A stretch of DNA of 64,000 nt from NCBI GenBank assembly GCA_964478845.1, contig CAYZJT010000012.1, positions 8,173 through 72,172 on the forward strand, given 5' to 3'. Source of the DNA: an uncultured Flavobacteriaceae bacterium (GTDB taxonomy: Bacteria; Bacteroidota; Bacteroidia; Flavobacteriales; Flavobacteriaceae). Made by a program: the position numbers and the translations under genes. Shown here one piece after another: positions 4,604-63,467 of this stretch. The number at the start of each line of letters is the position of its first letter. Position 1 is the stretch's first letter. The notes beneath the pieces are model-generated. The model saw only the letters and a list, made by a program, of their open reading frames with translations. It searched no databases and was not told the origin of the DNA.

Positions 4604-4623
4604 TACGCTTTCGCGAAAGCGTA
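4604..4623. repeat. GCTTTCGCGAAAGC palindrome, 20-bp extended form, 20 nt upstream of the greA ATG
   Basis: TACGCTTTCGCGAAAGCGTA read directly. Confidence 0.95.
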
Positions 4624-4762
4624 CAAATAATCATTTTTAAAGAAATGAACTGTATCAGGTAATCCAGATAGACCCACAAATACAAAAATCCCTGCCTGAG
4701 GGATTCATAAACAAATATACTAAAAGCCGATTCAAGCGTTTTAAATTTACAACTTTTAGATC

Positions 4763-5191
4763 ATGCGATACGCCAAATATCTTTTTCTGTTTTTGCTGAT
4801 GGCAGGTTGCTCTGATGACGACGATCAGCGCAGCAATCCGTTCTTGGTAGACGTGGGATTTTCAGTAGAGCTGAACACCAATCTCCCTCAATTTTCCAAC
4901 TTGAACTTCAACAACGGAGTCGTTGAAGTCGACAATGCGGGAATACGCGGCGTGGTAGTTTACAGACTCAACCAAGAAACCTATCTGGCATGGGAACTTA
5001 GCGATCCCAACCGTGCGCCAAACAACTGTTCCCGTCTACGCGTGAACGGTCTTGAGTTAGAAAGCCAATGTCCTGATGATAACAATAGCTACAACCTGAT
5101 TACTGGACAACCAGTGACAGGCGGCGGTAGGTTTAGTCTAAAGCCTTACCGAGCGGTACGTGAGGGAAGTATGGTAAGGGTTTTTAACTGA
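4763..5191 (+). CDS. Conserved Bacteroidetes lipoprotein with Rieske-like fold
   Basis: Lipobox MAGC followed by acidic residues; two internal Cys. Confidence 0.6.
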   Translation: MRYAKYLFLFLLMAGCSDDDDQRSNPFLVDVGFSVELNTNLPQFSNLNFNNGVVEVDNAGIRGVVVYRLNQETYLAWELSDPNRAPNNCSRLRVNGLELESQCPDDNNSYNLITGQPVTGGGRFSLKPYRAVREGSMVRVFN

Positions 5192-5204
5192 TTTGTATAA
5201 AGCT

Positions 5205-5251
5205 CCCCGCCTTAGACAAGGCGGGGATCGTTCAAAACTTTGTTTTGAACG
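5205..5251. repeat. Two adjacent perfect hairpins (REP-like element or bidirectional terminator)
   Basis: CCCCGCCTT-AGAC-AAGGCGGGG (5205-5226) and CGTTCAAAAC-TTT-GTTTTGAACG (5229-5251), between convergent genes. Confidence 0.7.
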
Positions 5252-5291
5252 AGGGGTGGTTGGATAGCTGTTCAGATGTAAATGAACTAAT

Positions 5292-7614: not shown

Positions 7615-7649
7615 TAAAAACCAACATCTGAATTACCGGTAAGGCAATT

Positions 7650-7791: not shown

Positions 7792-8445
7792 ATGGTATTA
7801 CTCGACGACCGCCTCATCTTCCCAGATCCGCTGGACGCGCCAGAGCACGTCTTGCTAGCAGTAGGCGGTGACCTGTCGACAGAGCGGCTGATGCTGGCCT
7901 ATCGGTCTGGAATCTTCCCGTGGTATAGCGATGGCGAGCCTATTTGCTGGTGGTCGCCTGATCCCCGCATGGTGTTTGACCTCACTGCGGATCAGCCTAT
8001 GCGCATCACAAAATCTCTAAAGCAGAGCAGACGCAATCGCGGATATATCGTCAAATTCAACACCGATTTTGAACAAGTCATCGCCAATTGCCGACACTCA
8101 CCGAGAATAGGACAGGACGGCACATGGCTAAATGATGAGATGCAACAAGCCTACTTAAAGTTGAATGAGTTAGGTCACGCAAAATCCGTAGCGGTTTATA
8201 AAAACGATGAGTTAGTAGGCGGACTATACGGCATCGACCTGCCAGAATCAAAGATCTTTTGCGGTGAAAGCATGTTTTCAAAGCATCGGGACGCCAGCAA
8301 GATTGCCCTTTGGTGGCTTGTAGAAAAACTTCAGGCAGATGGCTATCGCTACATCGATGGACAGGTGCAAAATGACCATTTAGAAAGTCTGGGTGGGATT
8401 ACGCTTTCGCGAAAGCGGTTTCTACAACAGCTCTACAACTGGTAA
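7792..8445 (+). CDS. aat: Leucyl/phenylalanyl-tRNA--protein transferase
   Basis: GGDLS..L..AYRSGIFPW, WWSPDPR and FCGESMFS motifs. Confidence 0.95.
   Translation: MVLLDDRLIFPDPLDAPEHVLLAVGGDLSTERLMLAYRSGIFPWYSDGEPICWWSPDPRMVFDLTADQPMRITKSLKQSRRNRGYIVKFNTDFEQVIANCRHSPRIGQDGTWLNDEMQQAYLKLNELGHAKSVAVYKNDELVGGLYGIDLPESKIFCGESMFSKHRDASKIALWWLVEKLQADGYRYIDGQVQNDHLESLGGITLSRKRFLQQLYNW
8403..8416. repeat. Palindrome copy inside aat (LSRK frame)
   Basis: Exact 14-mer. Confidence 0.95.
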
Positions 8446-9735: not shown

Positions 9736-9749
9736 GCTTTCGCGAAAGC
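9736..9749. repeat. Palindrome copy, intergenic between divergent genes
   Basis: Exact 14-mer. Confidence 0.95.
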
Positions 9750-12091: not shown

Positions 12092-13156
12092 TTACGTTAC
12101 TATTTCACCAAGTCCAGCATCGTGAGTCGGTATCATCCACCCATTTTCAATCCTGAAAAGCCCAGAAAAAGGATCATTGGTGAAATCTAGATGACCATCT
12201 AGATCAGCGTATTGGGTGTTTGGTCTGGCTAGTGCAAAATGCAGTCCTGCGGCTATTCCCAGCATGCTTTCATCCAGACAACCTACCATCACCGGCATTC
12301 CAGCTGCGCTGGCTACAGAGTCGATGTGAACTCCCTGAGTGATCCCTCCCACCTTCTGCAGTTTGATGTTGATCATGTTTGCCCCAGCAGATTTTGACAA
12401 TGAGTGCGCATCGCTGATTGATCGCACGCCCTCGTCTGCCATTACGGGAAGTGGTATTTCTGTGGCGAGTCGCTGTAATGCGATATCATCCTGATAATCC
12501 GTGGGCTGCTCAAGCATCTGGATGTTTAGCTTTTTTGTCCTTTTGGCAAATAGCTTGCTTTTTGCAATGTCATAACCTTGGTTGGCATCAAATCGCAACC
12601 CCAGTTCTAGGCCGTAGACTTCTCTTAGTTTGGCGAGTGCCTTGACATCCTGATCCAGATCTAGTCCACCTTTGATTTTCAAGATTCTGTAGCCTTGTTG
12701 CCAGTACGCTTTCGCGAAAGCGAGAACATCATCCACAGGCATAATCCCGATGGTCACACTCGTGGCGATCTTTCTACGATAACCGCCCAAAAACTTGTAA
12801 AGTGGCACACCGGCAGCCCGCGAAATCAAATCGTATAGCGCGATGTCCACCATCGCCAGCGCAGACCGCTGGTTTTGAAGATGTTTTTTCAACTCGGCAA
12901 TGTGCAGCCTGTATTCCCATGGGTCTTTATTTGACAGGTAGGGCTCGATGGTGGTATTGATGGCATTGACCACGGACTCTGCCGTCTCGCCGGTGATTTC
13001 CATATCGGGCGCCGCACAACCCCATCCAGTCAGTCCGTTGTCTGTATTGAGTTTGAGAACTACGTTTTGGGCGCTGTCGATAGACTCGTAGGCGATCGTG
13101 TAGCCAGACTTCATTTTTAAATCCAGCACTTGATATTCGATACTCGTGATTCTCAC
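12092..13156 (-). CDS. Enolase-superfamily L-Ala-D/L-Glu epimerase family protein (DgcA-like)
   Basis: KIK general-base motif, DANQG / EQP / DE metal ligands, NIKLQKVGG and DLDG. Confidence 0.88.
   Translation of the reverse strand: MRITSIEYQVLDLKMKSGYTIAYESIDSAQNVVLKLNTDNGLTGWGCAAPDMEITGETAESVVNAINTTIEPYLSNKDPWEYRLHIAELKKHLQNQRSALAMVDIALYDLISRAAGVPLYKFLGGYRRKIATSVTIGIMPVDDVLAFAKAYWQQGYRILKIKGGLDLDQDVKALAKLREVYGLELGLRFDANQGYDIAKSKLFAKRTKKLNIQMLEQPTDYQDDIALQRLATEIPLPVMADEGVRSISDAHSLSKSAGANMINIKLQKVGGITQGVHIDSVASAAGMPVMVGCLDESMLGIAAGLHFALARPNTQYADLDGHLDFTNDPFSGLFRIENGWMIPTHDAGLGEIVT
12708..12721. repeat. Palindrome copy inside the epimerase (AFAKA frame)
   Basis: Exact 14-mer. Confidence 0.95.
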
Positions 13157-13954: not shown

Positions 13955-15473
13955 TTGCGTATTTGTATTTCTTCTGAGCCAGAAACTCAGGGGTGATTTC
14001 TTGATCTTCCCAGCCATTGTTTTTCCTGATGACCGCACCATCTGCGTATTCATCCAGAATGTTGAAAAGTGGCAGGCGCACGTATTCAGGAAGATCCTCT
14101 AAGTTACTGCGCTGTTCATCAAAACGCAGCTCCATCACACGTGGGTGTGATTTTGCCAATCGTTTGGTGAATTCGTTTTTTTCGATAGCGCCCTTTTCCA
14201 ACAGCATGTGGTAGAGGTGAGCGGCATCGCTGCCTATTTGTTTTATACTGGTATTGGATAGTTTTTGAAGTGCAAGCTCAATCTGCAGGTCGCTGTAGCC
14301 GCAGTTTTTAGGATCGGATTCAAGGGCGGTAATCATTCCTATGATCCGGCGGCACTTCTCGCATTTGCCGCAGGGATACATGCGTTTTTCGTGTTCATGA
14401 GCCGCGTGACAGCTTACCTGTTCTTTTTGCAGATCAGGATAACGCTTGAGTAAGACCTTCATGATTAGCAATTCTGACATGCTGCGCAGCAACGAAAACT
14501 GATATAAGTCCCAGCCTTTCCTTGCATAAAATCTGGTCATCGCATTATCAAAGTATTTGCTCTGATCATATAGTGCCGCGTAATGCGTTATTCCGTTCAA
14601 CGATTTTTTCTCGGTGGTGTCGTACTCGTCGCCTACGATGATGTTTTTCAGGCCTTGTTTCAACGCGATAGGCAAGACGCCAAAAAGAAAAACGGATACC
14701 GTCCACAAACGCACGGGGTAGATATCTGCACGTATACTGGCGTAATTAGGTTTGATGAATTTTAGGTGTCGCAGCATCCAGTTGAAGATTCGGTCGCTGT
14801 TGCACCATACCTTGTTAGTACGTGGTTCGCTTTCGCGAAAGCGTCTAAAAGCATTTACCGCGGTAAACCAATGTCTCCCTGCCTCGTTCACATAAATAGG
14901 ATGCGGATAGCTAAATTCCTTGATCATCCCATAGGAAACTAGGCTGTCCTTTCCGCCGCTGCTCAGGATTGCGTAGGCCTCGGGATTCGCTTTCGCGAAC
15001 CTGCCTGTCGTGCCATGGCAGGCAGGAGCGGAATCAATTTTACACGCTGGCTGTGTGAACTTGATCTCTGCCTGTGTGTATCGTTCACGCTTCTCTGGGA
15101 CTAGACCTGTAAACTCTTCAGTCAAAAATGGATTGTCCACCAGCTTGTTGCATAGGATTTCCCGACTTGTATTCTCGGTCATGTCCTTGATCAATTGCTG
15201 ATCGGTTTTGTCATAATTGCCGTCAAAAATCAGCTCACGGCAAAACAGGCCGTAATTCATCGCGACCTGAGCGACCATCATACTAGCCAAATTCTGATCG
15301 GCTAAATCCTTTTTGTTGAACAGCTTATCGTTGTAAGTGTAGAAAAGCGTATTTGTAAACGTGTTGCCGTCCAGATCGATGATTTCATAAACCGCCTGCA
15401 CCCGTCGAGGGGTGATGATGGGTTTGTGAATCCGCAGGCTGCGCAGTACGACAAAATCCTCGAGTGCAATCAT
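13944..15473 (-). CDS. Uncharacterised PP-loop ATP-utilising enzyme (MurL/QueC-like)
   Basis: SSGGKDS PP-loop and C-terminal Cys cluster CHAAH-x7-PCGKCEKCRR. Confidence 0.65.
   Translation of the reverse strand: MIALEDFVVLRSLRIHKPIITPRRVQAVYEIIDLDGNTFTNTLFYTYNDKLFNKKDLADQNLASMMVAQVAMNYGLFCRELIFDGNYDKTDQQLIKDMTENTSREILCNKLVDNPFLTEEFTGLVPEKRERYTQAEIKFTQPACKIDSAPACHGTTGRFAKANPEAYAILSSGGKDSLVSYGMIKEFSYPHPIYVNEAGRHWFTAVNAFRRFRESEPRTNKVWCNSDRIFNWMLRHLKFIKPNYASIRADIYPVRLWTVSVFLFGVLPIALKQGLKNIIVGDEYDTTEKKSLNGITHYAALYDQSKYFDNAMTRFYARKGWDLYQFSLLRSMSELLIMKVLLKRYPDLQKEQVSCHAAHEHEKRMYPCGKCEKCRRIIGMITALESDPKNCGYSDLQIELALQKLSNTSIKQIGSDAAHLYHMLLEKGAIEKNEFTKRLAKSHPRVMELRFDEQRSNLEDLPEYVRLPLFNILDEYADGAVIRKNNGWEDQEITPEFLAQKKYKYANAE
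14829..14842. repeat. Palindrome copy inside the PP-loop gene (FRES frame)
   Basis: Exact 14-mer; a partial 11-nt copy also lies at 14989-14999. Confidence 0.95.
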
Positions 15474-23484: not shown

Positions 23485-23498
23485 GCTTTCGCGAAAGC
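23485..23498. repeat. Palindrome copy, intergenic upstream of der
   Basis: Exact 14-mer. Confidence 0.95.
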
Positions 23499-44177: not shown

Positions 44178-45983
44178 CTACTTATCTACGATTCCCATCT
44201 TTCTAAGCAAAAAGCTGGCATTCATATTTGTTGCAACGCCAGCTTTCATGGTATAGTCAAAAGTGAGCTCGTCGTTAGTGATGTCGGCATCAAAATAATA
44301 ATTGCTGATCTGCTCAAATTCATCGGCGACCTCGGTCAGGCTTAAGTCGTGTGTTGCGATGATGCCGGTTGCACGCTTTCGCGAAAGCTTCTCTATCAAC
44401 TCCCTACTGCCATTTGCCTTGTCCTGACTGTTTGTGCCTTTTAAAATTTCATCTAAGACAATGAAGTAAGGTTGCTCTTCAATCCTGTCGATAATGAATT
44501 TCAATCGGGACAGTTCGCTAAAGAAATAGGATGCTTCATCGCTTAGAGAATCACTCGTGCGCATGCTAGTAATGAGGTGAATGGGGGTGTACTGAACATT
44601 TTTGGCGCAAATAGGCAGTCCGATGTTTGATAGCACAATCTGAGTCGAAACCGTACGCAGAAACGTGCTCTTGCCAGCCATGTTAGCACCCGTGATGATA
44701 AAGAACTCACCTCGATCAATTTCAATGGTATTTCCCACCGCTTTTGCCGGATCCAGCAATAAATGATAGGCATTCTGGGCCTGAAATGTGAATTCACCAT
44801 CTTTAAGTCCTGCGTAAGTGTGATCTGGGTGGTTGAAAGCGTGATTTCCGCAAGTTTGTAAAGCCTCGAAATGCGCAACAGCACTTAGCCAGAGCGGCAC
44901 CGATTCCCTATTTTGCTCTAGCCATTGTTCAATCTTTCTGCATTGGTAGAGATCCCAAAGTCCGAGTCCATTAGCCAGTACGCCAAAAAGCATGTTGTTA
45001 CGCTGATCCAGTTTCCCTATCAGCTTACCCAGTTTTGTCAGTCGATGGGAAACAGGCGAGCCATCCTCTAGCAATACTTTTTTAAGATTAACATTTAGCG
45101 AAGCAACAAAATCTTCTTGCTCAATGGCTGCGATCAACTTCCCATACTGTGCAAAAAATTGCTCAAGTTCAGTCACCTGCGCGCTGAATGCGTTGATTTG
45201 TTTTAAGTATTTACCCGTAATAGCGAGTCCCAGAAAAAATCCTGCACCTACCCAGAATCCGGAGATCAGATCAGATGCGTAAAGCGCAATCAACGTAGCG
45301 TTGATCGCTAGAACAATAAATGACAGGTAGTCAAAAACCTTCGGCACAAAATCTTGATAACCAAGTGCCCAGATTTTTACCACAGTAGCTTTATCTGTTT
45401 TCCCAATCTGACTTGCGCTAGCTCTAAAGTCATGCCTGTAATCTGTTTTCCCAGCGAGTTCCTGTATAGCTTCCTGCCGTAGTTTCACATTTTCAGCATT
45501 CAGCGGAATATTCTGCCCGCGCAGATCCTTGAATTCGTTGTTAAGTAACGAAGCAAATTGGCGTGCGCCATCTGCGGTTTGAGTTCGATTGATGTATTGA
45601 TAGATCGATCCCACGCCGAATAAATCAATGTCGTGGCTGTATTCGTGACTTGGATCACTAAACTCGGCACCATCAGGTAGGTGATGAAATTTTCTTGCCA
45701 GTAAATTGATTTCTGTTTCTTGAATGCCAGTGAGCGCTGCGAGGTGATCCCTACGTTTTTTCAAGCCCTCATGGTGGCTCACTAGCAATAGAAAAATCAC
45801 TAATCCCACAAACCCAGCAACACCAGCCCACCAGCCGTAGGGCCAGAGAAAATAGATACTTGCTGCCGCAGCGAGAAACACCAGCAACCTGATCAGGCTG
45901 GATCGCCTGAGCAGCGCACGCTGATGGTCAAATTGCTTTTGGAATTGCTCTTTCCTTTTGGTGTAAAATTGATTGAGATCCAT
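44178..45983 (-). CDS. Membrane-anchored MutS-related ATPase (domain V only)
   Basis: N-terminal TM helices, ITGANMAGKSTFLR, LDEILKGTN and ATHDL. Confidence 0.88.
   Translation of the reverse strand: MDLNQFYTKRKEQFQKQFDHQRALLRRSSLIRLLVFLAAAASIYFLWPYGWWAGVAGFVGLVIFLLLVSHHEGLKKRRDHLAALTGIQETEINLLARKFHHLPDGAEFSDPSHEYSHDIDLFGVGSIYQYINRTQTADGARQFASLLNNEFKDLRGQNIPLNAENVKLRQEAIQELAGKTDYRHDFRASASQIGKTDKATVVKIWALGYQDFVPKVFDYLSFIVLAINATLIALYASDLISGFWVGAGFFLGLAITGKYLKQINAFSAQVTELEQFFAQYGKLIAAIEQEDFVASLNVNLKKVLLEDGSPVSHRLTKLGKLIGKLDQRNNMLFGVLANGLGLWDLYQCRKIEQWLEQNRESVPLWLSAVAHFEALQTCGNHAFNHPDHTYAGLKDGEFTFQAQNAYHLLLDPAKAVGNTIEIDRGEFFIITGANMAGKSTFLRTVSTQIVLSNIGLPICAKNVQYTPIHLITSMRTSDSLSDEASYFFSELSRLKFIIDRIEEQPYFIVLDEILKGTNSQDKANGSRELIEKLSRKRATGIIATHDLSLTEVADEFEQISNYYFDADITNDELTFDYTMKAGVATNMNASFLLRKMGIVDK
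44375..44388. repeat. Palindrome copy inside the MutS-related gene (LSRK frame)
   Basis: Exact 14-mer. Confidence 0.95.
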
Positions 45984-47101: not shown

Positions 47102-48160
47102 ATGAGTTATCCCAAACGACTTGTTATCGCGCGTTTCAGCGCCATGGGAGACGTGGCTCTCATGGTTCCCGTCATTCTCGCGCTCAGGAAAAAGTATCCT
47201 GATGTGGAAGTTTTTACGCTTTCGCGAAAGCGTAACAATGAAATCCTCAAGCAAATCGATGGCGTACGTGTTCTCGAGGCACAACTGGAAACAAATCATC
47301 GCGGCGTCGCCGGAATGTACAGACTGGCAAAAAAACTGAAAGATCTTGAAATCGACGCCCTCGCCGATATGCACAATGTGATCCGTACCAAAATGCTGCG
47401 CACATTTCTGGGCGGCGTCAAAAAGGCGGTGATTGATAAAGGTCGAAAAGAAAAGAAAAAACTGGTCTCTGACAAGGACTTTTTTCGGCCTTTAAAACAT
47501 ACAACTGAACGTTATCTTGAGGTGCTAAGAAATTTAGGCTATGATCTAAAACTGGATGGCGACGAGCAGTTGCCCGAGCTTCCCATGCCTCTGGAACTGG
47601 CGTCAAGATTGCATTTGGACGGTTTTCAATTAGTGGGGCTAGCACCATTTGCCGCGCACAAGACAAAGGCATTCTCAGTAAAAAAAGCCAGACGACTGGT
47701 AGAGGCCCTCAGCGCTGACAAAAACATAACGGTAGTCCTGATAGGAGGCGGAAAGAAAGAATGTAAAAAACTACAGGTAGTTGCTGGAACGACAGCTCAT
47801 GTGGTCAATCTTGCTGGAACGACCACTTTTAATAATGAGCTGGCTGTAATATCAAATCTGGATCTCATGATTGCGATGGACAGCGGTAATGGACACATTG
47901 CAGCAGCTTATGGCGTTCCTGTCATCACGGTTTGGGGGAATACACATCCCTACGCTGGGTTTGCACCATTTGGTCAACCCGAAGAAAACCAGCTAATTGC
48001 CAGCAGGGATAAATATCCATTGATACCTACTTCCATTTACGGTAACAAAAAGGTCAAAGGCTACCAAAAAGTGACCTGCAGCGTAAAAGTCAAGGATATC
48101 TTCAATAGAGTAAACGAGATTCTTTATAATCAACCATCAGCTGAGATTAAGCATGAATAG
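47102..48160 (+). CDS. GT9 (heptosyltransferase-like) glycosyltransferase
   Basis: RFSAMGDV, DMHNVIR, MDSGNGHIAA and WGNTHP. Confidence 0.88.
   Translation: MSYPKRLVIARFSAMGDVALMVPVILALRKKYPDVEVFTLSRKRNNEILKQIDGVRVLEAQLETNHRGVAGMYRLAKKLKDLEIDALADMHNVIRTKMLRTFLGGVKKAVIDKGRKEKKKLVSDKDFFRPLKHTTERYLEVLRNLGYDLKLDGDEQLPELPMPLELASRLHLDGFQLVGLAPFAAHKTKAFSVKKARRLVEALSADKNITVVLIGGGKKECKKLQVVAGTTAHVVNLAGTTTFNNELAVISNLDLMIAMDSGNGHIAAAYGVPVITVWGNTHPYAGFAPFGQPEENQLIASRDKYPLIPTSIYGNKKVKGYQKVTCSVKVKDIFNRVNEILYNQPSAEIKHE
47214..47235. repeat. Full 22-bp palindrome inside GT9 (TLSRKRN frame)
   Basis: TTACGCTTTCGCGAAAGCGTAA. Confidence 0.95.
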
Positions 48161-49270
48161 ATCTGCGGCGATACCGTCACTTAGGAATTTTCCTTTTCGT
48201 GTCACGAACAAATGATCATCATCTAGATAAAGTAAATGGTCATTTAAATATTCTTCTGCTTGTTTGAGTAGGTACTCGCGGTAGTTTTGGCCGTACTCGT
48301 TCTCAATTTTTTCTAGTGAGACACCGTAAATCGTACGCAGGCCTGTCATGATGTACTCGTTGTAGCGATCGGTTGTTGTGAGTTCCTCTACTTCCATGGG
48401 CAGTTTCCCTACTTCGATGCTTTTCATGTATTTCGCATTGTTGTTGATGTTCCACCCACGGCGGTGTCCATCGAAACTGTGTGCGCTGGGCCCTATACCG
48501 ATGTATGGTTTGCCTGTCCAGTAGGCGGTATTATTTTTTGAAAAGTAACCCTGTTTGCCGAAATTCGAAAACTCGTAATTCTCATAGCCGTGCAATTGCA
48601 TGACGTTCAGTAAGATCTTGAAATGCTCATGTGCAGCCTCATCATCCACCTGCGGAATCAGTCCTTTCTCAATAAATGACTTTAGCGGTGTTTTATCCTC
48701 GACGGTAAGCGCGTAACTGGAAATATGCGGTACGCCGAGGTCTATCGCGGTGTAGAGATTCTCACGCCAGCGCTCATTATCCATGTCTGGAATGCCATAG
48801 ATCAGGTCGATGGATAGGTTGTCAAATTTCTGTTTGGCAAGTTTGATACAATTTACGGCTTCATCAGCATTGTGTGCTCGATTCATGAGTTTGAGATCCT
48901 GCTCAAAAAAACTCTGGATGCCTATGGAAAGTCGATTGATTTTTGAATCGGCTAATTCTTCTATTTTCTCTGGTGTCAGATCATCTGGATTTGCTTCGAG
49001 GGTGATCTCGGCATCTGGTATGACGTCGTAGTGTTCGTCGATTGTGTCCAGAATCCGATTGATTTCGTCAAGGCTCAGAATACTCGGCGTCCCTCCACCG
49101 AAGTAGATGGTATGAACTTGTTTTAAAGCATATTCGCTTTCGCGAAAGCGTAATTCCTCACATATTGCCTCAACCATTCTATCTCGATACTTCAAAGAAG
49201 TAGAGAAGTGGAAATCACAATAATGACAGGCCTGTTTGCAAAATGGGATATGGATATAGATGCCGCTCAA
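48137..49270 (-). CDS. hemW: Radical SAM heme chaperone HemW
   Basis: YIHIPFCKQACHYCDF, YFGGGTPS and EITLEANP. Confidence 0.93.
   Translation of the reverse strand: MSGIYIHIPFCKQACHYCDFHFSTSLKYRDRMVEAICEELRFRESEYALKQVHTIYFGGGTPSILSLDEINRILDTIDEHYDVIPDAEITLEANPDDLTPEKIEELADSKINRLSIGIQSFFEQDLKLMNRAHNADEAVNCIKLAKQKFDNLSIDLIYGIPDMDNERWRENLYTAIDLGVPHISSYALTVEDKTPLKSFIEKGLIPQVDDEAAHEHFKILLNVMQLHGYENYEFSNFGKQGYFSKNNTAYWTGKPYIGIGPSAHSFDGHRRGWNINNNAKYMKSIEVGKLPMEVEELTTTDRYNEYIMTGLRTIYGVSLEKIENEYGQNYREYLLKQAEEYLNDHLLYLDDDHLFVTRKGKFLSDGIAADLFMLNLS
49136..49149. repeat. Palindrome copy inside hemW (FRES frame)
   Basis: Exact 14-mer. Confidence 0.95.
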
Positions 49271-50421: not shown

Positions 50422-53209
50422 GTTTTTTGACATACGGGAGGGTGAGCTATCCATAAGCTTGTGGATGCTGCTTTACTTGTTTTTAATTATTTGCGCGTTA
50501 CTGATAGTTAAGCCTACAGTTAACGCGCTTTTTTTATCAGAACAAGGCGCAGACTCCTTAGCCCTCGCATTCATCATCACGGCAATCGTTGCGGTGGTGG
50601 TTTCCTACTTGTATAACAAATCTCTTGAAAAATACCCACTGAGACGCACAATCAGGGGGACACTCACGCTTTTCAGCGTAGGTTTCTTTGTGATGGGGAT
50701 TTGTGTTACTACCGGCTTTGTACCTGCTTTTCTGGCGTATATCTTTTATATAGGCGTAGGAATGTTTGCTTTGCTGGCCACTTCACAGTTTTGGGTGATG
50801 GCAAATGTTGTGTATAATGTCAGGGAAGCCAAAAGGCTATTTGGGTTTATAGGCGCTGGTGGGATCATAGGTGGAATCGCTGGCGGTTATCTGACTTCTC
50901 TGACGGCACAGTATCTAGGCAACGGCGTGCTGATCATGATCGCAGCTGTAATGATAGCAGGATGCGGCGCAGTGTTCCAGAAAATCTGGAAGGATCGTGT
51001 GTCCAATCTCACTCAGTATAAACGCAAAGAGCGAGCGGGTGTTTCTTCCGAAAGCTCCATGAAATTGATCTGGGATTCGAAACACTTAACCTACCTAGCT
51101 GCACTTATAGGTTTGGGTGTTTTGGTTGCAAAGCTGGTGGACTATCAATTCAGCCTTGTTGCGCATAGGGAAATTCCAGATCCCCAGGAGCTGGCGTCTT
51201 TTTTTGGTTTTTGGTTCAGCACGTTTAATATAGTCTCACTACTCATCCAGTTATTTGTCACCCGACGGATTCTGGAGCGCACAGATGTAGGTGTAGGGCT
51301 CGTACTTTTACCAGTAGGTTTATTTTGCTGCTGTTTCCTGCTGTTGATATTCCCAGAGCTTTGGCTAGTTGTTCTTTTAAAAGGTTTGGATGGGAGCCTT
51401 AAACAATCTTTGCATAAGAGTAGTGTGGAATTACTGTCTCTACCCATACCCAGTACCGTAAAAAACAAGACCAAAACGTTCATTGATGTAGTCGTGGATA
51501 GCGTGGCTACTGGTATAGCTGGGTTTTTTATTGTTTTTATTGTAAAGGGGCTTGATCTGCCCATGACGGCGATAACTGCTCTAACTATTCTACTGTTAGC
51601 GCTTTGGGTTTTTATGGTTTTCAAAGTCAGGGAAACTTACCTGGGAACCTTTAGGGACAGCATTGCAAGTACTGAACACCTTAAACTCTCTAAAGCCTCT
51701 GCAAAACAGATACGCAAAAACATGCGTGTGATTTTTGAAACTGGTTCTGCAAAAGATATTCTTCAAGTGCTTGAACGCCTGCCAGAGGTAGCTCATTCAT
51801 CGCTAGGAAAAAATATTATTGAACTTTTGAACCATCCGGATAATAAGGTGAAAGCGGCCGCTGTGCGTAGTCTGGATCTGGTTACAAAAACTACCCAGCC
51901 ACAAGTTCAAGACCTGATCTATGAGCGGGATGATGATCTCATCGTCGCAGTAATGGAATATCTGATTGCTAGAGAGGCCACAACCTATCAGTTTTTTGAG
52001 CACTATCTGGACGATGAGGATGAGTTCATCTCTACGGCGGCTCTTCTAGCGCTGGCCAAGGACGCCAGAGATAATCCGAAACTTGCCTCAAAATATAACC
52101 TAGGCCTTAGGGTTAACCTGTTCATCCATGAAATAGAAAGCAGCGATAACGACCTTAAAATACCTGAAATAGCACACCTCATCAGGGCATTGGGTTATGT
52201 CACTCGAACCAAATATCACGAGATCATCGGCAGGTACCTCAAACATCCCAATCCCATTCTTAAAACCGCTGCTATCGAAGCTGCGGGTGAGATGGCGCAC
52301 GAAAAATTCCTTCCGCATCTTGTCGCTTGTCTTGAGGAATTTCGCTTTCGCGAAAGCGCAATTAAAGCAATCATCAAATACGGTAACAGCATCATACCGC
52401 TTATAGAAAAGGGAAAGGGTAGCACCACCGAGAATCATGTCCTGCAAATCTATGTGCCAGAAATATTGGCCGGTTTACGTACGCAACGCTCATATCGAGC
52501 GCTACTGAGGGTTGCTCAAAATGGCGGTGCCAGACAACGTACAAAAGCTACCGAGTTACTTTATGACTGGAGAAAGTCGGGCGATGCGTACCCAGTAAGG
52601 ATGAAGAGCCTGAGGCGCAGTATAGAAAATGAGATTTCCACTTACAAGAATTTGCTTTCCTGCTATTATTCACTCAGGATCATACAGCGTTCTGCCAGTA
52701 GGCCTGATAGTAATGTTGTTTCTCTCCCAGAGAAAGAGGCTAGACAACATCTAATCAATCAACTCCATTCATCTATGGAAATGGCTCTCAAAAGGACCTT
52801 TAATCTTCTGGCACTTTATTATGATCCCAACGATGTTTTTATAGCCTACAAAGGTTTAAAGAGCGATGTCCAAGACAGCAAGCTGAATGCGATAGAATAC
52901 ATGGATGGCCTAATCGCCAGAAACCTTAAAACTATTCTTTTCCCTATTCTCGAAAACGGATTTATCCACCCAGAAGAAGTCAAAGATTACCACGCCCACG
53001 TGGATCTGAAAAAGCAGGATGATTGCTACGACTTCCTTACTGACATACCTGATAGAGATGTTCATCTTAGGCTGATCGCATTACTCAAATTAGATCAAGA
53101 ACAGCAAAGTATGCAGCACCTTATTCATTTCAGCGAGGATGTTTCTCAAGAGATTTCTGATGCTGCTAATGAGGCTATACTTTATCGCAACAAGCAGGCT
53201 ACTGCGTGA
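50393..53209 (+). CDS. NTT/TLC-family (ATP:ADP antiporter-like) transporter fused to HEAT repeats (start probably 50393)
   Basis: N-terminal 12-TM domain (SQFW..AN..YN.REAKRLFG, KTKTFID), then HEAT-like helical repeats. Confidence 0.85.
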   Translation: MKQLSQQVRRFFDIREGELSISLWMLLYLFLIICALLIVKPTVNALFLSEQGADSLALAFIITAIVAVVVSYLYNKSLEKYPLRRTIRGTLTLFSVGFFVMGICVTTGFVPAFLAYIFYIGVGMFALLATSQFWVMANVVYNVREAKRLFGFIGAGGIIGGIAGGYLTSLTAQYLGNGVLIMIAAVMIAGCGAVFQKIWKDRVSNLTQYKRKERAGVSSESSMKLIWDSKHLTYLAALIGLGVLVAKLVDYQFSLVAHREIPDPQELASFFGFWFSTFNIVSLLIQLFVTRRILERTDVGVGLVLLPVGLFCCCFLLLIFPELWLVVLLKGLDGSLKQSLHKSSVELLSLPIPSTVKNKTKTFIDVVVDSVATGIAGFFIVFIVKGLDLPMTAITALTILLLALWVFMVFKVRETYLGTFRDSIASTEHLKLSKASAKQIRKNMRVIFETGSAKDILQVLERLPEVAHSSLGKNIIELLNHPDNKVKAAAVRSLDLVTKTTQPQVQDLIYERDDDLIVAVMEYLIAREATTYQFFEHYLDDEDEFISTAALLALAKDARDNPKLASKYNLGLRVNLFIHEIESSDNDLKIPEIAHLIRALGYVTRTKYHEIIGRYLKHPNPILKTAAIEAAGEMAHEKFLPHLVACLEEFRFRESAIKAIIKYGNSIIPLIEKGKGSTTENHVLQIYVPEILAGLRTQRSYRALLRVAQNGGARQRTKATELLYDWRKSGDAYPVRMKSLRRSIENEISTYKNLLSCYYSLRIIQRSASRPDSNVVSLPEKEARQHLINQLHSSMEMALKRTFNLLALYYDPNDVFIAYKGLKSDVQDSKLNAIEYMDGLIARNLKTILFPILENGFIHPEEVKDYHAHVDLKKQDDCYDFLTDIPDRDVHLRLIALLKLDQEQQSMQHLIHFSEDVSQEISDAANEAILYRNKQATA
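52344..52357. repeat. Palindrome copy inside the NTT-HEAT gene (FRES frame)
   Basis: Exact 14-mer. Confidence 0.95.
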
Positions 53210-54418: not shown

Positions 54419-55462
54419 TTATACCTCATCAAAATTGACCTTCACCCTAGCTGATTCTGGGTAAGCCTGACAAGCTAAAGAATATCCCTCTGAGATCTCG
54501 CTATCGGTCAAGATGGAATTCTTGGCCATTTTTGCGCTGCCTTCTTCAATCAGGCAGATGCAGGAGCTACAGATCCCGCCCTGACAGCTGTACGGCGCAT
54601 CTATTCCCTCGCGCAGCATCGCATCCAGCATGGGCTCATTGCGCTGCATGGTAAAGCTGTGGGTCTCATCATCCAGCAAGACTTCAATCTGGCTTAGGTG
54701 GCCGTCTTCGGTCACCTCGATTTTGTTATCTGTGGTGGTGAAGAGTTCAAATTTGATGTCTTCAGCTTTTAGGTAATCTTTCTCGATAAGGTTCTCTTTT
54801 GCCATATCGATCATTTCCTTGGGGCCGCATAGGTAAGCTTTCGCGAAAGCGTAATTACCACAGTCCTGCTTTAAAAAGTAATTCAGATTGCTCTTGATCA
54901 CCCTACCGAACAGCGCCTCGTCCCGTTCCTCGCGTGAAAACGTATACCGCAGAACGAAACGGTCCCCGTACTCGTCCTTTAGATCGTTGAGCTGCTCGTA
55001 GTAAATGGTCTGGGCGAGGCTCTGGTTGCCGTAGATGAGCGCAAATTTTGCTTCGGGCTCATTTCTGAGTGCGGTCTTGATAATCGACATAATAGGCGTA
55101 ATACCGCTTCCTGCCGCGATGGCCAGATAAGTGGGATTAGATGGTTCTGCCTCATGGATAAAAAGTCCGTCTGGTGCGGCAACATCGATTTGATCACCAG
55201 CACGCAATTTCATGGCGTGGTTGGAAAAAACACCGTTCTCAACTGCCTTGACTACTACCGTCGGGTCTGGATCGCTGGGTGCGCTGGAAAGCGAGTAGGC
55301 ACGGCGCACCTCTTTACCATCGATTTCGGTTTTAAGCGTGAGGTATTGTCCAGCCTGATATTCAAATTCTGACTTCAGGGAATCAGGAATTTCAAAACTG
55401 ATTTCCAGCGCTGCAGGCGTTACTTTAGTGACTTGTTTTATGTTGAGCGTGTGAAAGGTCAT
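54419..55462 (-). CDS. Ferredoxin-NADP+ reductase / PaaE-like flavin reductase with 2Fe-2S domain
   Basis: RRAYSL, AAGSGITP, YLCGP and CQGGICSSC..C 2Fe-2S motif. Confidence 0.9.
   Translation of the reverse strand: MTFHTLNIKQVTKVTPAALEISFEIPDSLKSEFEYQAGQYLTLKTEIDGKEVRRAYSLSSAPSDPDPTVVVKAVENGVFSNHAMKLRAGDQIDVAAPDGLFIHEAEPSNPTYLAIAAGSGITPIMSIIKTALRNEPEAKFALIYGNQSLAQTIYYEQLNDLKDEYGDRFVLRYTFSREERDEALFGRVIKSNLNYFLKQDCGNYAFAKAYLCGPKEMIDMAKENLIEKDYLKAEDIKFELFTTTDNKIEVTEDGHLSQIEVLLDDETHSFTMQRNEPMLDAMLREGIDAPYSCQGGICSSCICLIEEGSAKMAKNSILTDSEISEGYSLACQAYPESARVKVNFDEV
54837..54850. repeat. Palindrome copy inside the ferredoxin reductase (AFAKA frame)
   Basis: Exact 14-mer. Confidence 0.95.
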
Positions 55463-58839: not shown

Positions 58840-59770
58840 GTTGTAAGTAAACTACATCCTTTGCTTTCAACTCATGCTTGTGGCTGAAGAAGATCGGTTG
58901 TCCATTCTCATACGTTGCTTTAATCAAAAAGCGCGTCCCCAAAAAGAACGAATTTCCTACCATTACTTCTAAGCCTGAATCGGAGACTTTCAATTGGTGA
59001 GGATATAGTAAAAGCGTGCCATTTTTATTGAATAAGCTGCCATCCATCTCAGTCACTTCATCAAAAAGCGATGCTGTGTATCTGGTTTTTGGATCATGGT
59101 AGATCTCATCAGTAGATCTGTGATCCAAGATCTCACCATCGTGCATGACCAGCAATTCATCGGTAAATGGCAACACGTCCTCGCAATCGTGTGTGGCGAC
59201 GATACTGGCAATCCCTTTCTCGTCTAGGTAATTGTAAATGCGTCTGCGCAGATTGTTGCGTCTAAAGTGGTCAATGTGTGAGAATGGCTCATCCAGCAAC
59301 AGCACTTCAGGTTCTTGAGCAAGTGCTTTTGCTATAGCAACCCGCTGTTTCTGCCCACCAGAAAGTGTTTTTACTTTTCGATTACTGAATGCTGCCAAGT
59401 CGACTACTTGAAGCAATTCTGCAATCCGCCGGTCACGTCCATCCAATTGAATGGACAAATGTTCACCTACATTTTCAGCTACGGTGGTGTAGGGCATCAA
59501 ATTAAATTCTTGAGGAACATATTTCATCATGGGATGACCTGGGACCAGATGATCTTGTGCGCCTTTTAGTTCTACGCCGTTGTATGTTACTGTACCAGAT
59601 TGATAATCCAGCAATCCGTAGATATAATTCAGCAATGTGCTTTTACCACAGCCACTTTCACCCATGACGGCGAGATGTTTCCCGCCGTCCAGATGAAATG
59701 AAATGTCCTTGAGTGTGTGGGATTCTGCTTTCGCGAAAGCAAAATCAACATTTTCTAGTCTAAGCATCAA
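58817..59770 (-). CDS. ABC transporter ATP-binding protein (Fe3+/polyamine-like)
   Basis: GESGCGKS, LSGGQKQR, LLLDEPFS and ATHD. Confidence 0.9.
   Translation of the reverse strand: MMLRLENVDFAFAKAESHTLKDISFHLDGGKHLAVMGESGCGKSTLLNYIYGLLDYQSGTVTYNGVELKGAQDHLVPGHPMMKYVPQEFNLMPYTTVAENVGEHLSIQLDGRDRRIAELLQVVDLAAFSNRKVKTLSGGQKQRVAIAKALAQEPEVLLLDEPFSHIDHFRRNNLRRRIYNYLDEKGIASIVATHDCEDVLPFTDELLVMHDGEILDHRSTDEIYHDPKTRYTASLFDEVTEMDGSLFNKNGTLLLYPHQLKVSDSGLEVMVGNSFFLGTRFLIKATYENGQPIFFSHKHELKAKDVVYLQLNRTTKS
59727..59740. repeat. Palindrome copy inside the ABC ATPase (AFAKA frame)
   Basis: Exact 14-mer. Confidence 0.95.
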
Positions 59771-62005: not shown

Positions 62006-62019
62006 GCTTTCGCGAAAGC
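62006..62019. repeat. Palindrome copy, intergenic between divergent genes
   Basis: Exact 14-mer. Confidence 0.95.
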
Positions 62020-62094
62020 TTAAACATCACTCTACACTAGAAATCTGATTTAGTCAGAATATTCTTTTACATTGCCTAGCACATTTTTAGAATT

Positions 62095-62775
62095 ATGCCT
62101 AAACTGATAACCACGCTTTTTGCGACATATTTACTGCTTACCTCTAGCAGTTGTGAGGAGCCGCCTAAGTTGCTGAGTTCCAGTAGAGGATATTTCTCAG
62201 CTTTTATCGTTGATGCTTCAGACTCACCTATTAGCAATGCAAAAGTTTCTCTTTTTACCCCAAGCACACCACAAAATTTAATACTAGGGACTGGTGTAAC
62301 AGATGCCACAGGATTTGTGGATTTTACAACATTAGCAAGTGACGGTGTATTTAATGTTCTAGAGGTCGAGGATGCTATGGGAAACACCTCTTCAGTAGTT
62401 TATAGCAGTCAAATGAACGTGAATACTAATTTCACGCACATAATCCAAAAGCTTCAAGTTCAACAAGCAACAGAGGTTACCCTAGTCGTAAATGCACCTG
62501 CTAGCGCAACTGGTACTGTTGATCTAAGCATAATTAAAGATAAATTGATATGCGTTGAAGATTGGATACACGGCATTATCCCAGAATCTCTTGATTGTAG
62601 CCAGCGCATAGAGTTAAATGAATTTATTAGGCTTAGTAACACTGTGAGGGAAGAAGTATTTAGCGCGCCGCTTAATACCGAGATAACCGTCGTCTACAGC
62701 GTTGATGGCGGTCCTGAGACAACCCAGAATTTCTTTGTCAATAGTGCAAATCCAGTGTATGAAATTAATCTATAG
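62095..62775 (+). CDS. Hypothetical lipoprotein with Ig/carboxypeptidase-regulatory-like fold
   Basis: Lipobox SSSC; PISNAKVSL..TDATG pattern. Confidence 0.6.
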   Translation: MPKLITTLFATYLLLTSSSCEEPPKLLSSSRGYFSAFIVDASDSPISNAKVSLFTPSTPQNLILGTGVTDATGFVDFTTLASDGVFNVLEVEDAMGNTSSVVYSSQMNVNTNFTHIIQKLQVQQATEVTLVVNAPASATGTVDLSIIKDKLICVEDWIHGIIPESLDCSQRIELNEFIRLSNTVREEVFSAPLNTEITVVYSVDGGPETTQNFFVNSANPVYEINL

Positions 62776-63403
62776 TTTATTTATTACTATGGTTATTGTG
62801 TGGAATATAAAGGCTCAAGATCTTCCCGTGGACACTCTTGATAATGAAAAGTTATTAAAGAAATCTGCGGTTTTAGAAATGTATTATTCCATGGCAGTGC
62901 CTAGTGGTGATAATTTTTTAGGCAATGGTTATGAAGCAGGAACGGGGATCGGTTTCAGGCTTCACATGTATCCCTTGAGGAAGGTTTATGCTGGTCTGGG
63001 AATGGACTTTGTAGGATTAGATGTAAAAAAACCCCAGCTAGTAGGCGCATATTCAAATACCGGTCGCTCACGATACTATGCCTTTCTGGGACATGAGTTT
63101 TATCTTGATGGGAACTTCAATCTTATGGCAGACCTAGCCATTGGCGGTGTTGAATTTAATAATGATCCCATTACGCCCACAACCGAGCGGTTTTCAGAAA
63201 GTGGTACTTTTTACAGTCCATCGGTAAATGTGGATTATGAATTCACTGATGGGTTCAGTGCTTTTGCGAGATTGTCGTATACTTATGTTGACATGGATTT
63301 TCAAAATTTATCCCCAGTAATTGAAGAACAATTTGAAAGTGGATCTTTCATTGATTTTTCTATTGGGCTTCGGTACACCATTAAAACAAGAAACGTCAAG
63401 TAA
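62759..63403 (+). CDS. OmpA/OmpW-like outer-membrane beta-barrel protein (start probably 62759)
   Basis: Signal peptide from MKLIYSLF; alternating beta-strands; ends FSIGLRY. Confidence 0.7.
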   Translation: MKLIYSLFITMVIVWNIKAQDLPVDTLDNEKLLKKSAVLEMYYSMAVPSGDNFLGNGYEAGTGIGFRLHMYPLRKVYAGLGMDFVGLDVKKPQLVGAYSNTGRSRYYAFLGHEFYLDGNFNLMADLAIGGVEFNNDPITPTTERFSESGTFYSPSVNVDYEFTDGFSAFARLSYTYVDMDFQNLSPVIEEQFESGSFIDFSIGLRYTIKTRNVK

Positions 63404-63453
63404 CGTTGTAGGGATTTTTACTGATACTTGACTGTGGTGCGTAATGATTATTC

Positions 63454-63467
63454 GCTTTCGCGAAAGC
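63454..63467. repeat. Palindrome copy, intergenic upstream of the fasciclin gene
   Basis: Exact 14-mer. Confidence 0.95.

Follow-up and report, generated by a model that had tools for sequence, protein, structure and literature searches.

An exact 14-bp palindrome iterated through Nonlabens genomes: a lineage-specific DNA signal and possible mark of self DNA

The window, a 64,000-nt stretch of DNA from a Nonlabens genome, carries 22 exact copies of the 14-bp palindrome GCTTTCGCGAAAGC, counted on its letters and located in the genes and spacers given in Table 1. The same number and every one of the coordinates had been listed in a first-pass annotation of this DNA and were reproduced here. Dinucleotide-preserving shuffles of the window contain a mean of 0.01 copies, in agreement with the earlier argument against chance, and the gaps between exact copies, previously put at 0.7 to 6.1 kb, measure 715 to 6093 bp. 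Among the degenerate copies proposed at the time, the one at 24892 is a one-mismatch variant, but those at 14989 and 16714 differ from the word by more than two mismatches; a two-mismatch copy missing from the earlier list lies at 63800. The greA-like gene probably has its true start downstream of the copy found at the 5′ end of its longest ORF, and the copy close to the beginning of the longest ABC ATPase ORF may likewise precede the true start.

Table 1. Exact and near copies of the palindrome in the window, with their genomic context and, for copies within genes, the phase.
Copy	Coordinates	Context	Phase
Exact	4607..4620	5′ end of longest greA-like ORF	
Exact	8403..8416	Leu/Phe-tRNA protein transferase gene, final 30 nt	2
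Exact	9736..9749	Spacer between divergent genes	
Exact	12708..12721	Within enolase-superfamily (MR_MLE) gene	0
Exact	14829..14842	Within 509-aa gene	1
Exact	20922..20935	Within 920-aa outer-membrane beta-barrel protein gene	0
Exact	23485..23498	Intergenic, stop codon 8 nt before	
One mismatch, GCTTTCGCAAAAGC	24892..24905	Intergenic	
Exact	26880..26893	Within family-2 glycosyltransferase gene	1
Exact	28805..28818	Within 470-aa gene	2
Exact	32404..32417	Within RsmI-like TP_methylase gene	2
Exact, full 22-mer TTAC...GTAA	35864..35877	Intergenic	
Exact	37224..37237	Within 200-aa ORF adjoining Eco57I-like methyltransferase gene	1
Exact	37939..37952	Within Eco57I-like methyltransferase gene	1
Exact	41381..41394	Within 957-aa BNR/sortilin-like protein gene	0
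Exact	44375..44388	Within MutS-domain-V gene	2
Exact, full 22-mer	47218..47231	Within family-9 glycosyltransferase gene	2
Exact	49136..49149	Within HemN-like radical-SAM gene	1
Exact	52344..52357	Within 952-aa MFS/HEAT protein gene	1
Exact	54837..54850	FNR-type oxidoreductase gene, in NAD-binding domain	0
Exact	59727..59740	ABC ATPase gene, 30 nt into longest ORF	
Exact	62006..62019	Intergenic spacer	
Exact	63454..63467	Intergenic spacer	
Two mismatches, GCTTTTGCGAAAGT	63800..63813	Missing from the earlier list	

The host genome (3.15 Mb, 42.7% G+C) contains 749 copies of GCTTTCGCGAAAGC, which are even across all large contigs at a density of 0.24 per kb, or approximately one copy per 4 kb. 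The first-pass annotation had proposed a count against a Markov background; models of order 1-5, for which the motif was masked during training, predict 0.004-0.018 copies in the whole genome, an observed/expected ratio of 40,000 to 180,000, and the word is the commonest 14-mer of the genome by a wide margin. It is also sharply defined, as all 42 one-mismatch variants combined occur only 88 times (exact to one-mismatch ratio, 8.5 to 1). The 16-mer (C)GCTTTCGCGAAAGC(G) accounts for 543 of the 749 copies and the full 22-mer for 43. The literature search called for earlier found no description containing the 14-mer, and the word goes unmentioned in the genome papers on Dokdonia and Nonlabens.

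The 22-bp flank consensus TTAC...GTAA noted earlier in the window holds genome-wide. Positions ±1 are C/G in 85% of copies, ±2 are A/T in 46/44%, ±3 are T/A in 74/76%, and ±4 are T/A in 66%. Each half of the word has a 5′ flank of ~19 nt that is G+T-rich and C-poor, most strongly at synonymous codon positions; at third codon positions upstream, C drops from 0.226 to 0.051, and G drops likewise downstream. Since such skewed flanks of ~19 nt are present on each side, the signal is a symmetric block of ~52 bp. The T side, with position-specific T tracts, lies upstream of the word and the A side downstream, where the flank is G-poor and C/A-rich, and the pattern was also found in other Nonlabens and in Dokdonia. 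The first-pass annotation had not remarked on these ~19-nt G+T-rich flanks. The two flanks vary independently, covariation being absent beyond ±4, and an extended hairpin or cruciform was ruled out on this ground. Nearest-neighbor folding gave −2.1 kcal/mol for the 14-mer and −7.3 kcal/mol for the 22-mer.

Approximately two thirds of the copies lie inside genes, 489 of them in ORFs with phases 257/123/109, and domain assignments place the coding copies in conserved Pfam domains. The word, occupying all three phases and conserved domains, is read as DNA and not as peptide. Codon alignments of 21 orthologues contain no indel, and coding copies arise by point substitution: other species show near-motif "proto-sites" at the aligned positions, and some amino-acid changes complete the word. 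In the window, the copy in the MutS-domain-V gene was made by substitutions (EKLSRKRA in the codon alignment) at a site also found in one other species, and the copy in the HemN-like gene has its counterpart at the same codon and phase in one other species. These alignments bear on a derivation of the copies, as remnants, from a small mobile palindromic element (REP, MITE, or RPE type), which we find scarcely credible. A repeated palindrome with a flank consensus decaying with distance fits such an element, but the coding copies, which use all three phases, have not altered gene length in comparison with orthologues, no sequence is shared beyond ~22 bp, there are no target duplications, and positions are conserved across species at 70-80% identity. 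For the coding copies, a mobile-element origin is refuted by the absence of indels and the use of all phases.

The word is ~6 times as dense between genes as in coding DNA, and a stop codon precedes many of the spacer copies by 10-30 nt. Both features would suit an action in RNA, where the same hairpin would form in sense and antisense and serve as a processing or stability element or as an aid to Rho stops on untranslated transcripts. The fold of the 22-mer and the composition of the downstream flank point the same way, the latter resembling Rho-loading sites, which are G-poor and C/A-rich. However, divergent (promoter-only) spacers are as copy-rich as tandem spacers and convergent spacers are poorest, the T-rich upstream and A-rich downstream sequences are the reverse of an intrinsic terminator, and the compensatory stem changes expected of a structural RNA were not seen. 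We consider a role in RNA highly improbable. No known RNA family was found in the window with Rfam.

The spacing of the copies, which the first-pass annotation had suggested comparing with Poisson, is more regular than that expectation (gap CV 0.57), with 29 gaps below 1 kb against 163 expected and 16 gaps above 10 kb against 56 expected. Bins of 20 kb contain a mean of 5.0 copies with a variance of 1.67 (variance/mean 0.33), and none is empty. A density map, also suggested there, is uniform chromosome-wide with no origin or terminus zoning. The genes adjoining closely spaced site pairs revealed nothing telling. Individual positions are strongly conserved: from one species to another, 67-88% of copies remain in place, compared with 2-6% for random 14-mers. 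Where nucleotide identity is 74-84%, the word persists at 129 of 157 aligned sites (82%), the value for random 14-mers being 4-6%; where identity is 66-74%, the corresponding values are 67% and 2%. In Dokdonia orthologues, 3 of 26 coding sites lie at the same codon and phase. The sequence around the sites is conserved no more than the background; since identity is not raised near the sites, the data show, at this resolution, no sign of locally frequent recombination.

The regular and uniform spacing, the occupancy of every 20-kb bin, and the conservation of positions are consistent with a binding site for an abundant lineage-specific chromosome-organizing protein that would punctuate the chromosome every ~4 kb. 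Candidates are a nucleoid-associated protein, a loop or domain anchor, and a condensin or topoisomerase positioning site. The A/T tracts and G+T-skewed flanks would serve the bending or wrapping of ~50 bp, matching the symmetric ~52-bp footprint; the genome encodes small HU/IHF-like proteins with high-expression codon usage, and phages would have no need of such a site. Nucleoid-protein sites, however, are normally degenerate, in contrast to the 8.5 to 1 sharpness seen here, and it is hard to explain why such a site would be tolerated and even selected within conserved enzyme domains, where it costs amino-acid changes, instead of being confined to spacers. A motif scan, a weak test, found only one GERRxRA/ParB-like protein and no second, Noc-like ParB, and no lineage-specific DNA-binding protein was identified. 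We regard an organizing site as possible but rather unlikely. The regional variant offered by the first-pass annotation, a site of the parS, NBS, or matS kind, does not fit 749 uniform copies with no empty 20-kb bin and a single ParB-like protein.

Since GCTTTCGC is the reverse complement of GCGAAAGC, the 14-mer consists of exactly two overlapping copies of the latter, which share the central GC, and is the smallest sequence with a d(GCGAAAGC) mini-hairpin on both strands. The word might act through this fold in single-stranded DNA, blocking 3′ exonucleases, excluding SSB, or marking primase starts, with no dedicated reader protein. Such an action would explain why the scans found no reader, and the 2-4 kb spacing is within a few-fold of Okazaki-fragment length. 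A review gives the mini-hairpin a Tm near 82 °C, 3′-exonuclease resistance, poor SSB binding, and a place in the phage G4 primase site (PMC13037366). On the other hand, the GCGNNAGC and GCGNAGC variants reach at most ~3.5-fold over the composition expectation, against ~26-fold for GCGAAAGC (top variants, GCGCAGC with 551 against 170 expected and GCGCCAGC with 128 against 36), and the other 15 double mini-hairpin palindromes each occur 0-1 times. Since these other palindromes are essentially absent, the exact word is kept and not the fold, and a general selection for mini-hairpins was ruled out by their near-absence. Clade restriction, the conserved ±1 to ±4 positions, and the long skewed flanks are also left unexplained. 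The 14-mer itself folds weakly by nearest-neighbor parameters, which miss the mini-hairpin fold (PMC13037366). The mini-hairpin account seems quite improbable.

A methylation-linked word, another option of the first-pass annotation, is in our view very improbable. After Elhai's proposal for HIP1, the word would be a by-product or tool of methylation-directed repair, in which a conserved methyltransferase marks TCGCGA/CGCG and biased mismatch or very-short-patch repair drives near-matches to the word. HIP1 lies within the target sequences of two orphan methyltransferases that are conserved (PMC4390886), both TCGCGA and CGCG occur in the present word, and a motif scan of the genome revealed three DNA methyltransferases: an Eco57I-like enzyme, a C5 enzyme with an HpaII-like nuclease, and a type I HsdM. 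However, a joined-protein search over 53 genomes showed that all three are patchy: many motif-rich genomes, G288 among them, lack them, and motif-free genera have them. The Eco57I-like methyltransferase encoded in the window was ruled out as a partner on this basis. Since methyltransferases were sought by motif scan only, an atypical enzyme could have escaped. No Vsr-like nuclease was found by motif scan, again a weak test, the count of TCGCGA outside the word is 508, close to the ~537 expected, and a neutral repair drive would give neither even spacing nor skewed flanks. We know of no methyltransferase that reads 14-16 bp.

The secretin family PF00263 (type IV pilus or type II secretion) is present in Nonlabens and in 63 motif-free genera and absent from the motif-rich G288 and G308. 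Since secretin is missing from these two other motif-rich genera, pilus-and-secretin uptake cannot be the common factor, and a link to the type IV pilus or to secretin was ruled out for the same reason. All 8 motif-rich genomes examined, which represent three genera, have intact ComEC and DprA; since both are near-universal, their presence proves little. No conserved DNA methyltransferase, second ParB, or secretin follows the distribution of the word, and no reader protein was found.

The word occurs in all 24 of the 24 other Nonlabens species, with 312-858 copies each. Only 3 of 300 genera of the Flavobacteriaceae are word-rich, Nonlabens and Dokdonia among them, and no other genome in a 400-genome sample of the phylum exceeds 4 copies. 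Two lytic Nonlabens phages contain 0 copies even at two mismatches, against ~8.5 each predicted from the host density, and the word is missing from compositionally odd stretches and from contig C24. Where other genera have the word, its few copies are clustered in islands, among them a shared copper-efflux island. The word can serve as a marker of DNA originating in this clade, flagging that island as moved to other genera. Viral contigs mostly have single matches, and a few have 2-3 copies.

Our results establish (C)GCTTTCGCGAAAGC(G) as a signal carried by the DNA itself and specific to the Nonlabens/Dokdonia lineage. The first-pass annotation had inferred a genome-wide cis-acting signal akin to HIP1, DUS, and USS, to be abandoned if composition explained the counts, if the copies were confined to the window, or if the motif was a REP-type remnant. 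Composition fails to explain the counts, the copies extend far beyond the window, and no REP-type remnant is involved; that core inference is supported by a word that is uniform, made in genes by substitution, conserved, evenly spaced, and limited to one clade.

Abundance, exactness, even spacing, conserved positions, absence from phages, clade restriction, and the flanks together suggest a self-DNA signal for uptake or recombination, read by a candidate symmetric factor. We put this reading forward tentatively, at somewhat less than an even chance. The exact word, beyond a mere hairpin, would be read by a symmetric (dimeric) sequence-specific factor and would mark long-resident "self" DNA for homologous recombination. 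It may do so during DNA uptake in natural transformation, like USS and DUS and as proposed for HIP1, or as a two-way Chi-like stop while DNA ends are processed. On both sides, the strand with its 3′ end toward the palindrome is the G+T-rich one, and this strand would be the single strand left for RecA by a break or stop at the word. RecA prefers G+T-rich single strands. Against the self-DNA reading stands the lack of a reader protein in the scans made. Even spacing, positional conservation, and phage absence fit a chromosome-architecture site equally well. To our knowledge, uptake sequences and Chi are short and asymmetric, and a perfect palindrome of 14-16 bp is without precedent among them. 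On the side of uptake, another member of the order, Riemerella columbina, shows natural competence and a preference for its own DNA and has so far yielded no uptake sequence (PMC7965970).

A more specific and, in our judgment, unlikely form of the self-DNA reading takes the 52-bp unit as a bidirectional recombination signal of a new kind that marks "self" DNA. On duplex DNA, the exact palindrome would be recognized by a dimeric factor peculiar to the lineage, which would either admit the DNA in uptake or halt end-resection at the word. The G+T-rich 3′ tails on both sides, capped by the nuclease-resistant GCGAAAGC mini-hairpin, would be RecA-ready substrates. If so, a single symmetric element would unite the logic of Chi with that of uptake sequences, and the HIP1 problem, now 30 years old, would gain an independent parallel that is accessible to genetics.

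Among known systems, parS (ParB), NBS (Noc), matS (MatP), and SBS (SlmA) are palindromes of 12-16 bp read by dimers, and the resemblance of the TTTC...GAAA arms to parS and NBS, with a 2-bp instead of a 4-bp center, was confirmed as previously described. However, those sites have 1 to ~70 copies, whereas the word has 749, uniform, without origin or terminus zoning and mostly in genes; together with its 2-bp center and the single GERRxRA protein, this sets it apart from ParB-family sites. REP/BIME, MITE, and Rickettsia palindromic elements are also dispersed palindromic repeats, but they are inserted and imperfect, REP being confined to spacers, whereas the word is made in place by substitution, is not spacer-confined, and shares no sequence beyond its core. 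The d(GCGAAAGC) mini-hairpin (Hirao; PMC13037366) is present on each strand of the word; it is a physico-chemical motif from phage origins, and other hairpin-forming sequences are at most modestly enriched here.

Chi, read by RecBCD/AddAB, is likewise a lineage-specific "self" marker lacking in phages and G+T-rich on the strand ending 3′ at the site, and its density in E. coli, ~1 per 4-5 kb, is close to that of the word. Chi is, however, an asymmetric sequence of 5-8 nt, read in single-stranded DNA and co-oriented with replication. Since the word is a palindrome of 14-16 bp, it cannot be oriented, and the strand bias of Chi has no counterpart here. As to the attenuation of RecBCD/AddAB degradation and the RecA loading brought about by Chi, the one suggestive feature of the word is how its G+T-rich flanks are arranged.

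USS (Pasteurellaceae) and DUS (Neisseriaceae) resemble the word as exact lineage-specific words with hundreds to thousands of copies, an origin by point mutation, even spacing, enrichment in spacers, and scarcity in phages and recent islands, all of which were found here. USS flanks are extended and compositionally constrained, as are those of the word, and ComEC and DprA occur in its hosts, in line with these systems. On the other hand, USS and DUS are asymmetric 9-12-mers, often in inverted pairs, and act via pilus-dependent uptake, whereas the dedicated machine (type IV pilus with secretin; ComP in Neisseria) does not co-occur with the palindrome, whose distribution secretin does not track.

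A further close likeness is to HIP1, which is said to go back to Robinson et al. in 1995. HIP1 and the word are both perfect palindromes, hyper-abundant across a clade and palindromically extendable, found in coding DNA in all frames and in non-coding DNA, arising by substitution, conserved beyond neutral expectation with quasi-regular spacing, and unsettled in function. The word differs in sequence, phylum, and length (14-16 bp, not 8), is ~5-10 times less dense, and is much sharper, one-mismatch copies being rare here and common for HIP1. HIP1-type words have a conserved, often orphan, methyltransferase for a subsequence; by motif scan and a joined-protein search over 53 genomes, no conserved methyltransferase accompanies the present word, the three in this genome being patchy. 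The long G+T/A+C-skewed flanks are a further difference, and we know of no description of such flanks for HIP1. HIP1 (GCGATCGC) and alternative highly iterated palindromes are cyanobacterial (Elhai 2015, PMC4390886; Xu et al. 2018, PMC5861425), and a role of HIP1 in uptake or transformation has now been proposed (PMC13756078). The word is a second, independent case of a HIP1-like iterated signal, in another phylum. Genome-wide iterated words such as USS, DUS, Chi, and HIP1 are among the few DNA signals shaping whole bacterial genomes. The sharp on/off boundary at three genera suits phylogenetic profiling for the reader, and experiments are feasible because Dokdonia and Nonlabens are cultured marine model bacteria. 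Should the word promote uptake or recombination, it could also become a tool for better genetics in marine flavobacteria. The purpose of HIP1 has been debated for 30 years, and the word presents an unusually clean case, being exact, 14-16 bp long, and set in a measurable 52-bp architecture.

All 22 exact copies of the palindrome GCTTTCGCGAAAGC (hereafter the word) that the first-pass annotation had located were recovered at the same positions in a search of the window (C12:8173-72172 of the 3.15-Mb assembly, 42.7% G+C), while shuffles of the window gave 0.01 copies. Among the three degenerate copies also claimed, 24892 stands with one mismatch, while 14989 and 16714 differ at more than two positions; a two-mismatch search of the window added only 24892 and 63800 (two mismatches). 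The whole genome contains 749 exact copies, against 0.004‒0.018 expected from Markov models of order 1‒5 trained with the motif masked, and no other 14-mer comes close to it in number. Copies are even, at 0.19‒0.33 per kb on every contig longer than 12 kb. The word is sharply bounded. One-mismatch variants number 88 in total over all 42 genome-wide, and TCGCGA occurs 1354 times, 846 of them inside TTCGCGAA and 749 inside the full 14-mer; outside the word, 508 occurrences compare with ~537 predicted from composition. The 16-mer CGCTTTCGCGAAAGCG is present at 72% of copies, and beyond it the signal fades through TTAC/GTAA, consistent with the flank decay described earlier.

The 725 gaps between copies were compared with a Poisson process and have a mean of 3.9 kb and a CV of 0.57. 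Gaps shorter than 1 kb number 29 and those longer than 10 kb number 16, against 163 and 56 expected from the exponential distribution. Counts in 129 windows of 20 kb (mean 5.0 copies, variance 1.67) are uniform and none is empty, so that no origin or terminus zone emerges from mapping density along the chromosome. Density is ~1 per kb in spacers and 0.175 per kb within genes. Copies are equally dense in divergent and tandem spacers and sparsest in convergent ones, so they are not terminators. A broader action at the RNA level failed at least one test, and we regard it as hardly likely at all.

Within ORFs, taken crudely as the longest ORF, 489 copies were found (phases 257/123/109), 338 of them deep inside. 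The Pfam domains holding window copies include the enolase superfamily, an RsmI-like methylase, HemN radical SAM, an FNR-type NAD-binding domain, and MutS domain V. Codon alignments covering 20 kb at the MutS-domain gene in 20 further Nonlabens species revealed an equal codon number wherever one species has the word, which rules out an inserted element for the coding copies. At the EKLSRK(R/H)A site, GAGAAGCTTTCGCGAAAGCGTGC is found in the window genome and one other species, and GAGAAGCTCTCCAGAAAACATGC or similar in the remaining species. At a second aligned position, two species have the word and others have near-matches such as GCTTGCGCGAAAGC; there the word is completed by an Ala-to-Ser change. 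The equal codon numbers and near-matches thus show that copies were made in place by point changes, which, judging from these alignments, sometimes cost an amino-acid change. Separately, the MutS-domain-V protein is only 52‒58% identical between Nonlabens species, against 70‒76% for the adjoining genes, an unusually fast evolution for a repair-family protein.

Once made, the sites are kept far more often than random aligned 14-mers, as a comparison at 20 loci showed in all three identity bins, although the species pairs are phylogenetically non-independent. Motif sites were conserved in 58 of 66 cases at 78‒84% nucleotide identity (random 14-mers, 5.6%), in 71 of 91 at 74‒78% (3.7%), and in 38 of 57 at 66‒74% (2.3%). 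Identity in the 8‒2560 nt around the sites is nowhere raised above background, so the word is an island of exact conservation. In a Dokdonia genome, the word occurs at 0.185 per kb (400 kb examined), and 3 of the 26 coding sites of the window genome are matched, in codon and phase alike, in Dokdonia orthologues (58% identical), where a rough count gives ~0.004 by chance. The main rival to the recombination reading set out below, a site of chromosome architecture, accounts for the spacing and conservation equally well but leaves the exactness unexplained, and we consider it rather unlikely.

On each strand, the ~19 nt on the 5′ side of the word contain little C (4‒12%) and are G+T-rich, with a G peak at −16/−15 and T peaks at −13 to −10, −7/−6, and −4/−3, and the 3′ flank mirrors this pattern. 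The skew is present for spacer and deep-coding copies, on sense and antisense strands, and is the same in other Nonlabens and in Dokdonia. Upstream C drops at third (0.226 to 0.051), first (0.181 to 0.103), and second (0.201 to 0.093) codon positions, and downstream G behaves alike; third positions reach 78% G+T upstream and 79% A+C downstream. Next to the sites, the codon alignments contain synonymous switches to AGT, AGG, and TTG. Beyond ±4, no covariation links the flanks of a copy, which excludes an extended stem. With an exact core between flanks constrained in composition only, the functional unit is thus a symmetric block of ~52 bp. By its geometry, on either side of the dyad the G+T-rich strand is the one that runs 3′ towards it.

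All 24 other Nonlabens species have 312‒858 copies, and a scan with the 22-mer also matches many Dokdonia genomes. Among 300 Flavobacteriaceae genera, each surveyed with one genome, three are rich (749/722, 409, and 797 copies) and the rest have 0‒16. No copy was found in 16 other families of the order, and a 400-genome sample of the phylum held more than four copies nowhere outside Nonlabens. Copies in other genera are few and clustered. One pair of copies recurs with a spacing of 933 bp, in the TolC-like gene of a copper/silver-efflux island. This island also encodes a P-type ATPase, a multicopper oxidase, a CusA-like RND pump, and a tyrosine integrase; besides the window genome, at least five other Flavobacteriaceae genera have it, each with the same two copies. 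The island is probably mobile and long resident in the Nonlabens/Dokdonia lineage, so the word can serve as a tracer of horizontal transfer, marking DNA that left this clade.

Even with two mismatches allowed, the word was missing from both cultured lytic Nonlabens phages, P12024S and P12024L (35.7 kb each). In the window genome, the longest stretches lacking sites either have an atypical composition or resemble the ribosomal-protein cluster, and contig C24 (16.6 kb, odd tetranucleotide usage) has no copies. The longest palindrome-free stretch, beside the sole secretin gene of the genome, may be a recent acquisition. Some IMG/VR viral contigs carry two or three copies; those with three may represent prophages belonging to the clade, or host sequence mis-called as viral.

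Coordinates of palindrome-bearing and other features
Feature	Location	Strand	Details
Longer hairpin relative of the word	window 7560-7614		arms TTACGCTTTC ... GGGAAAGCGTAA, ~33 nt enclosed
Five-gene enzyme operon, tightly packed	window 12092-17604	-	two palindrome copies; PLP enzyme, DUF1611, PP-loop ATPase, creatininase-like enzyme, enolase-superfamily enzyme
Eco57I-like N6-adenine methyltransferase (503 aa) overlapping 200-aa ORF	window 36828-38934	-	homologues patchy: genomes G016, G095, G042, G052; few Nonlabens
MutS-domain-V-only protein	window 44178-45983	-	
C5 cytosine methyltransferase overlapping HpaII-like restriction endonuclease gene	G000 (window genome) C7:36361-38698		outside window
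Copper/silver island	G000 C6:4.5-18.5 kb (4500-18600)		outside window
Secretin gene and longest palindrome-free stretch	G000 C2:77833-94994		outside window; stretch of 16.5 kb, 39% G+C, three genes for 1450-1900 aa
Island copy pair, other genera	G178:C1:436588-437534		
Island copy pair, other genera	G141:C1:2829431-2830377		
Island copy pair, other genera	G317:C1:1156266-1157212		
Island copy pair, other genera	G155:C1:2561727-2562673		
Island copy pair, other genera	G253:C1:311231-312177		
Viral contigs (IMG/VR)	L189 (IMGVR_UViG_2617271332_000001); L159, L176, L181 (IMGVR_UViG_3300039191_000362)		three copies, 3-4 kb apart

That the word is exact, and that neither compensatory nor alternative palindromes are seen, points to a reader specific for the sequence and not to a fold. 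Both strands carry the d(GCGAAAGC) mini-hairpin, of which the 14-mer is the minimal overlap, and this mini-hairpin is very stable (PMC13037366). Enrichment of other mini-hairpin variants is modest at most, and each of the 15 alternative double palindromes occurs 0‒1 times. Action as a single-strand mini-hairpin, having failed at least one test, seems quite improbable.

Three DNA methyltransferases are recognisable in the genome: the Eco57I-like enzyme of the window, a C5 enzyme with an HpaII-like nuclease, and HsdM. In a joined-query search of 22 motif-rich and 31 motif-poor genomes, all three were patchy and uncorrelated with the word, and the genome of the third motif-rich genus (beside Nonlabens and Dokdonia) has none; they were rejected as partners. 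A role in methylation and repair also failed at least one test and is very improbable. The Eco57I-like pair looks like a mobile restriction-modification-like pair without a link to the palindrome. Highly similar copies of the C5/HpaII-like pair (74‒81% identity) are found in scattered genera, so it is a mobile restriction-modification system. Weak motif scans found only one ParB-type protein, so that a second ParB was set aside as a partner, and no Vsr-like motif. The secretin was rejected as a partner, as its family is found in Nonlabens but in neither of the other motif-rich genera. All eight motif-rich genomes checked have intact ComEC and DprA, which is compatible with transformation without being diagnostic.

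The 14-mer appears in no paper of the literature searched, the Dokdonia and Nonlabens genome papers make no mention of it, and the HIP literature is cyanobacterial throughout. The word belongs among the iterated genome-signature words, a known class. By analogy with that class, we tentatively favor the reading that it marks resident DNA for homologous recombination, acting either at uptake or, in a Chi-like way, at end processing, where the G+T-rich 3′-ending flanks would be the RecA substrate. The step from a selected DNA signal to recombination or uptake is one that we infer. It is plausible because Riemerella columbina, of the same order, shows natural competence with a preference for its own DNA, no uptake sequence having been found so far (PMC7965970), and because HIP1 has lately been linked to transformation (10.1101/2024.09.10.611283; PMC13756078). 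With the uptake sequences USS and DUS and with HIP1, the word shares its nature as a lineage-specific exact word made by substitution, its even spacing, positional conservation, and spacer enrichment, and its absence from lytic phages and recent DNA.
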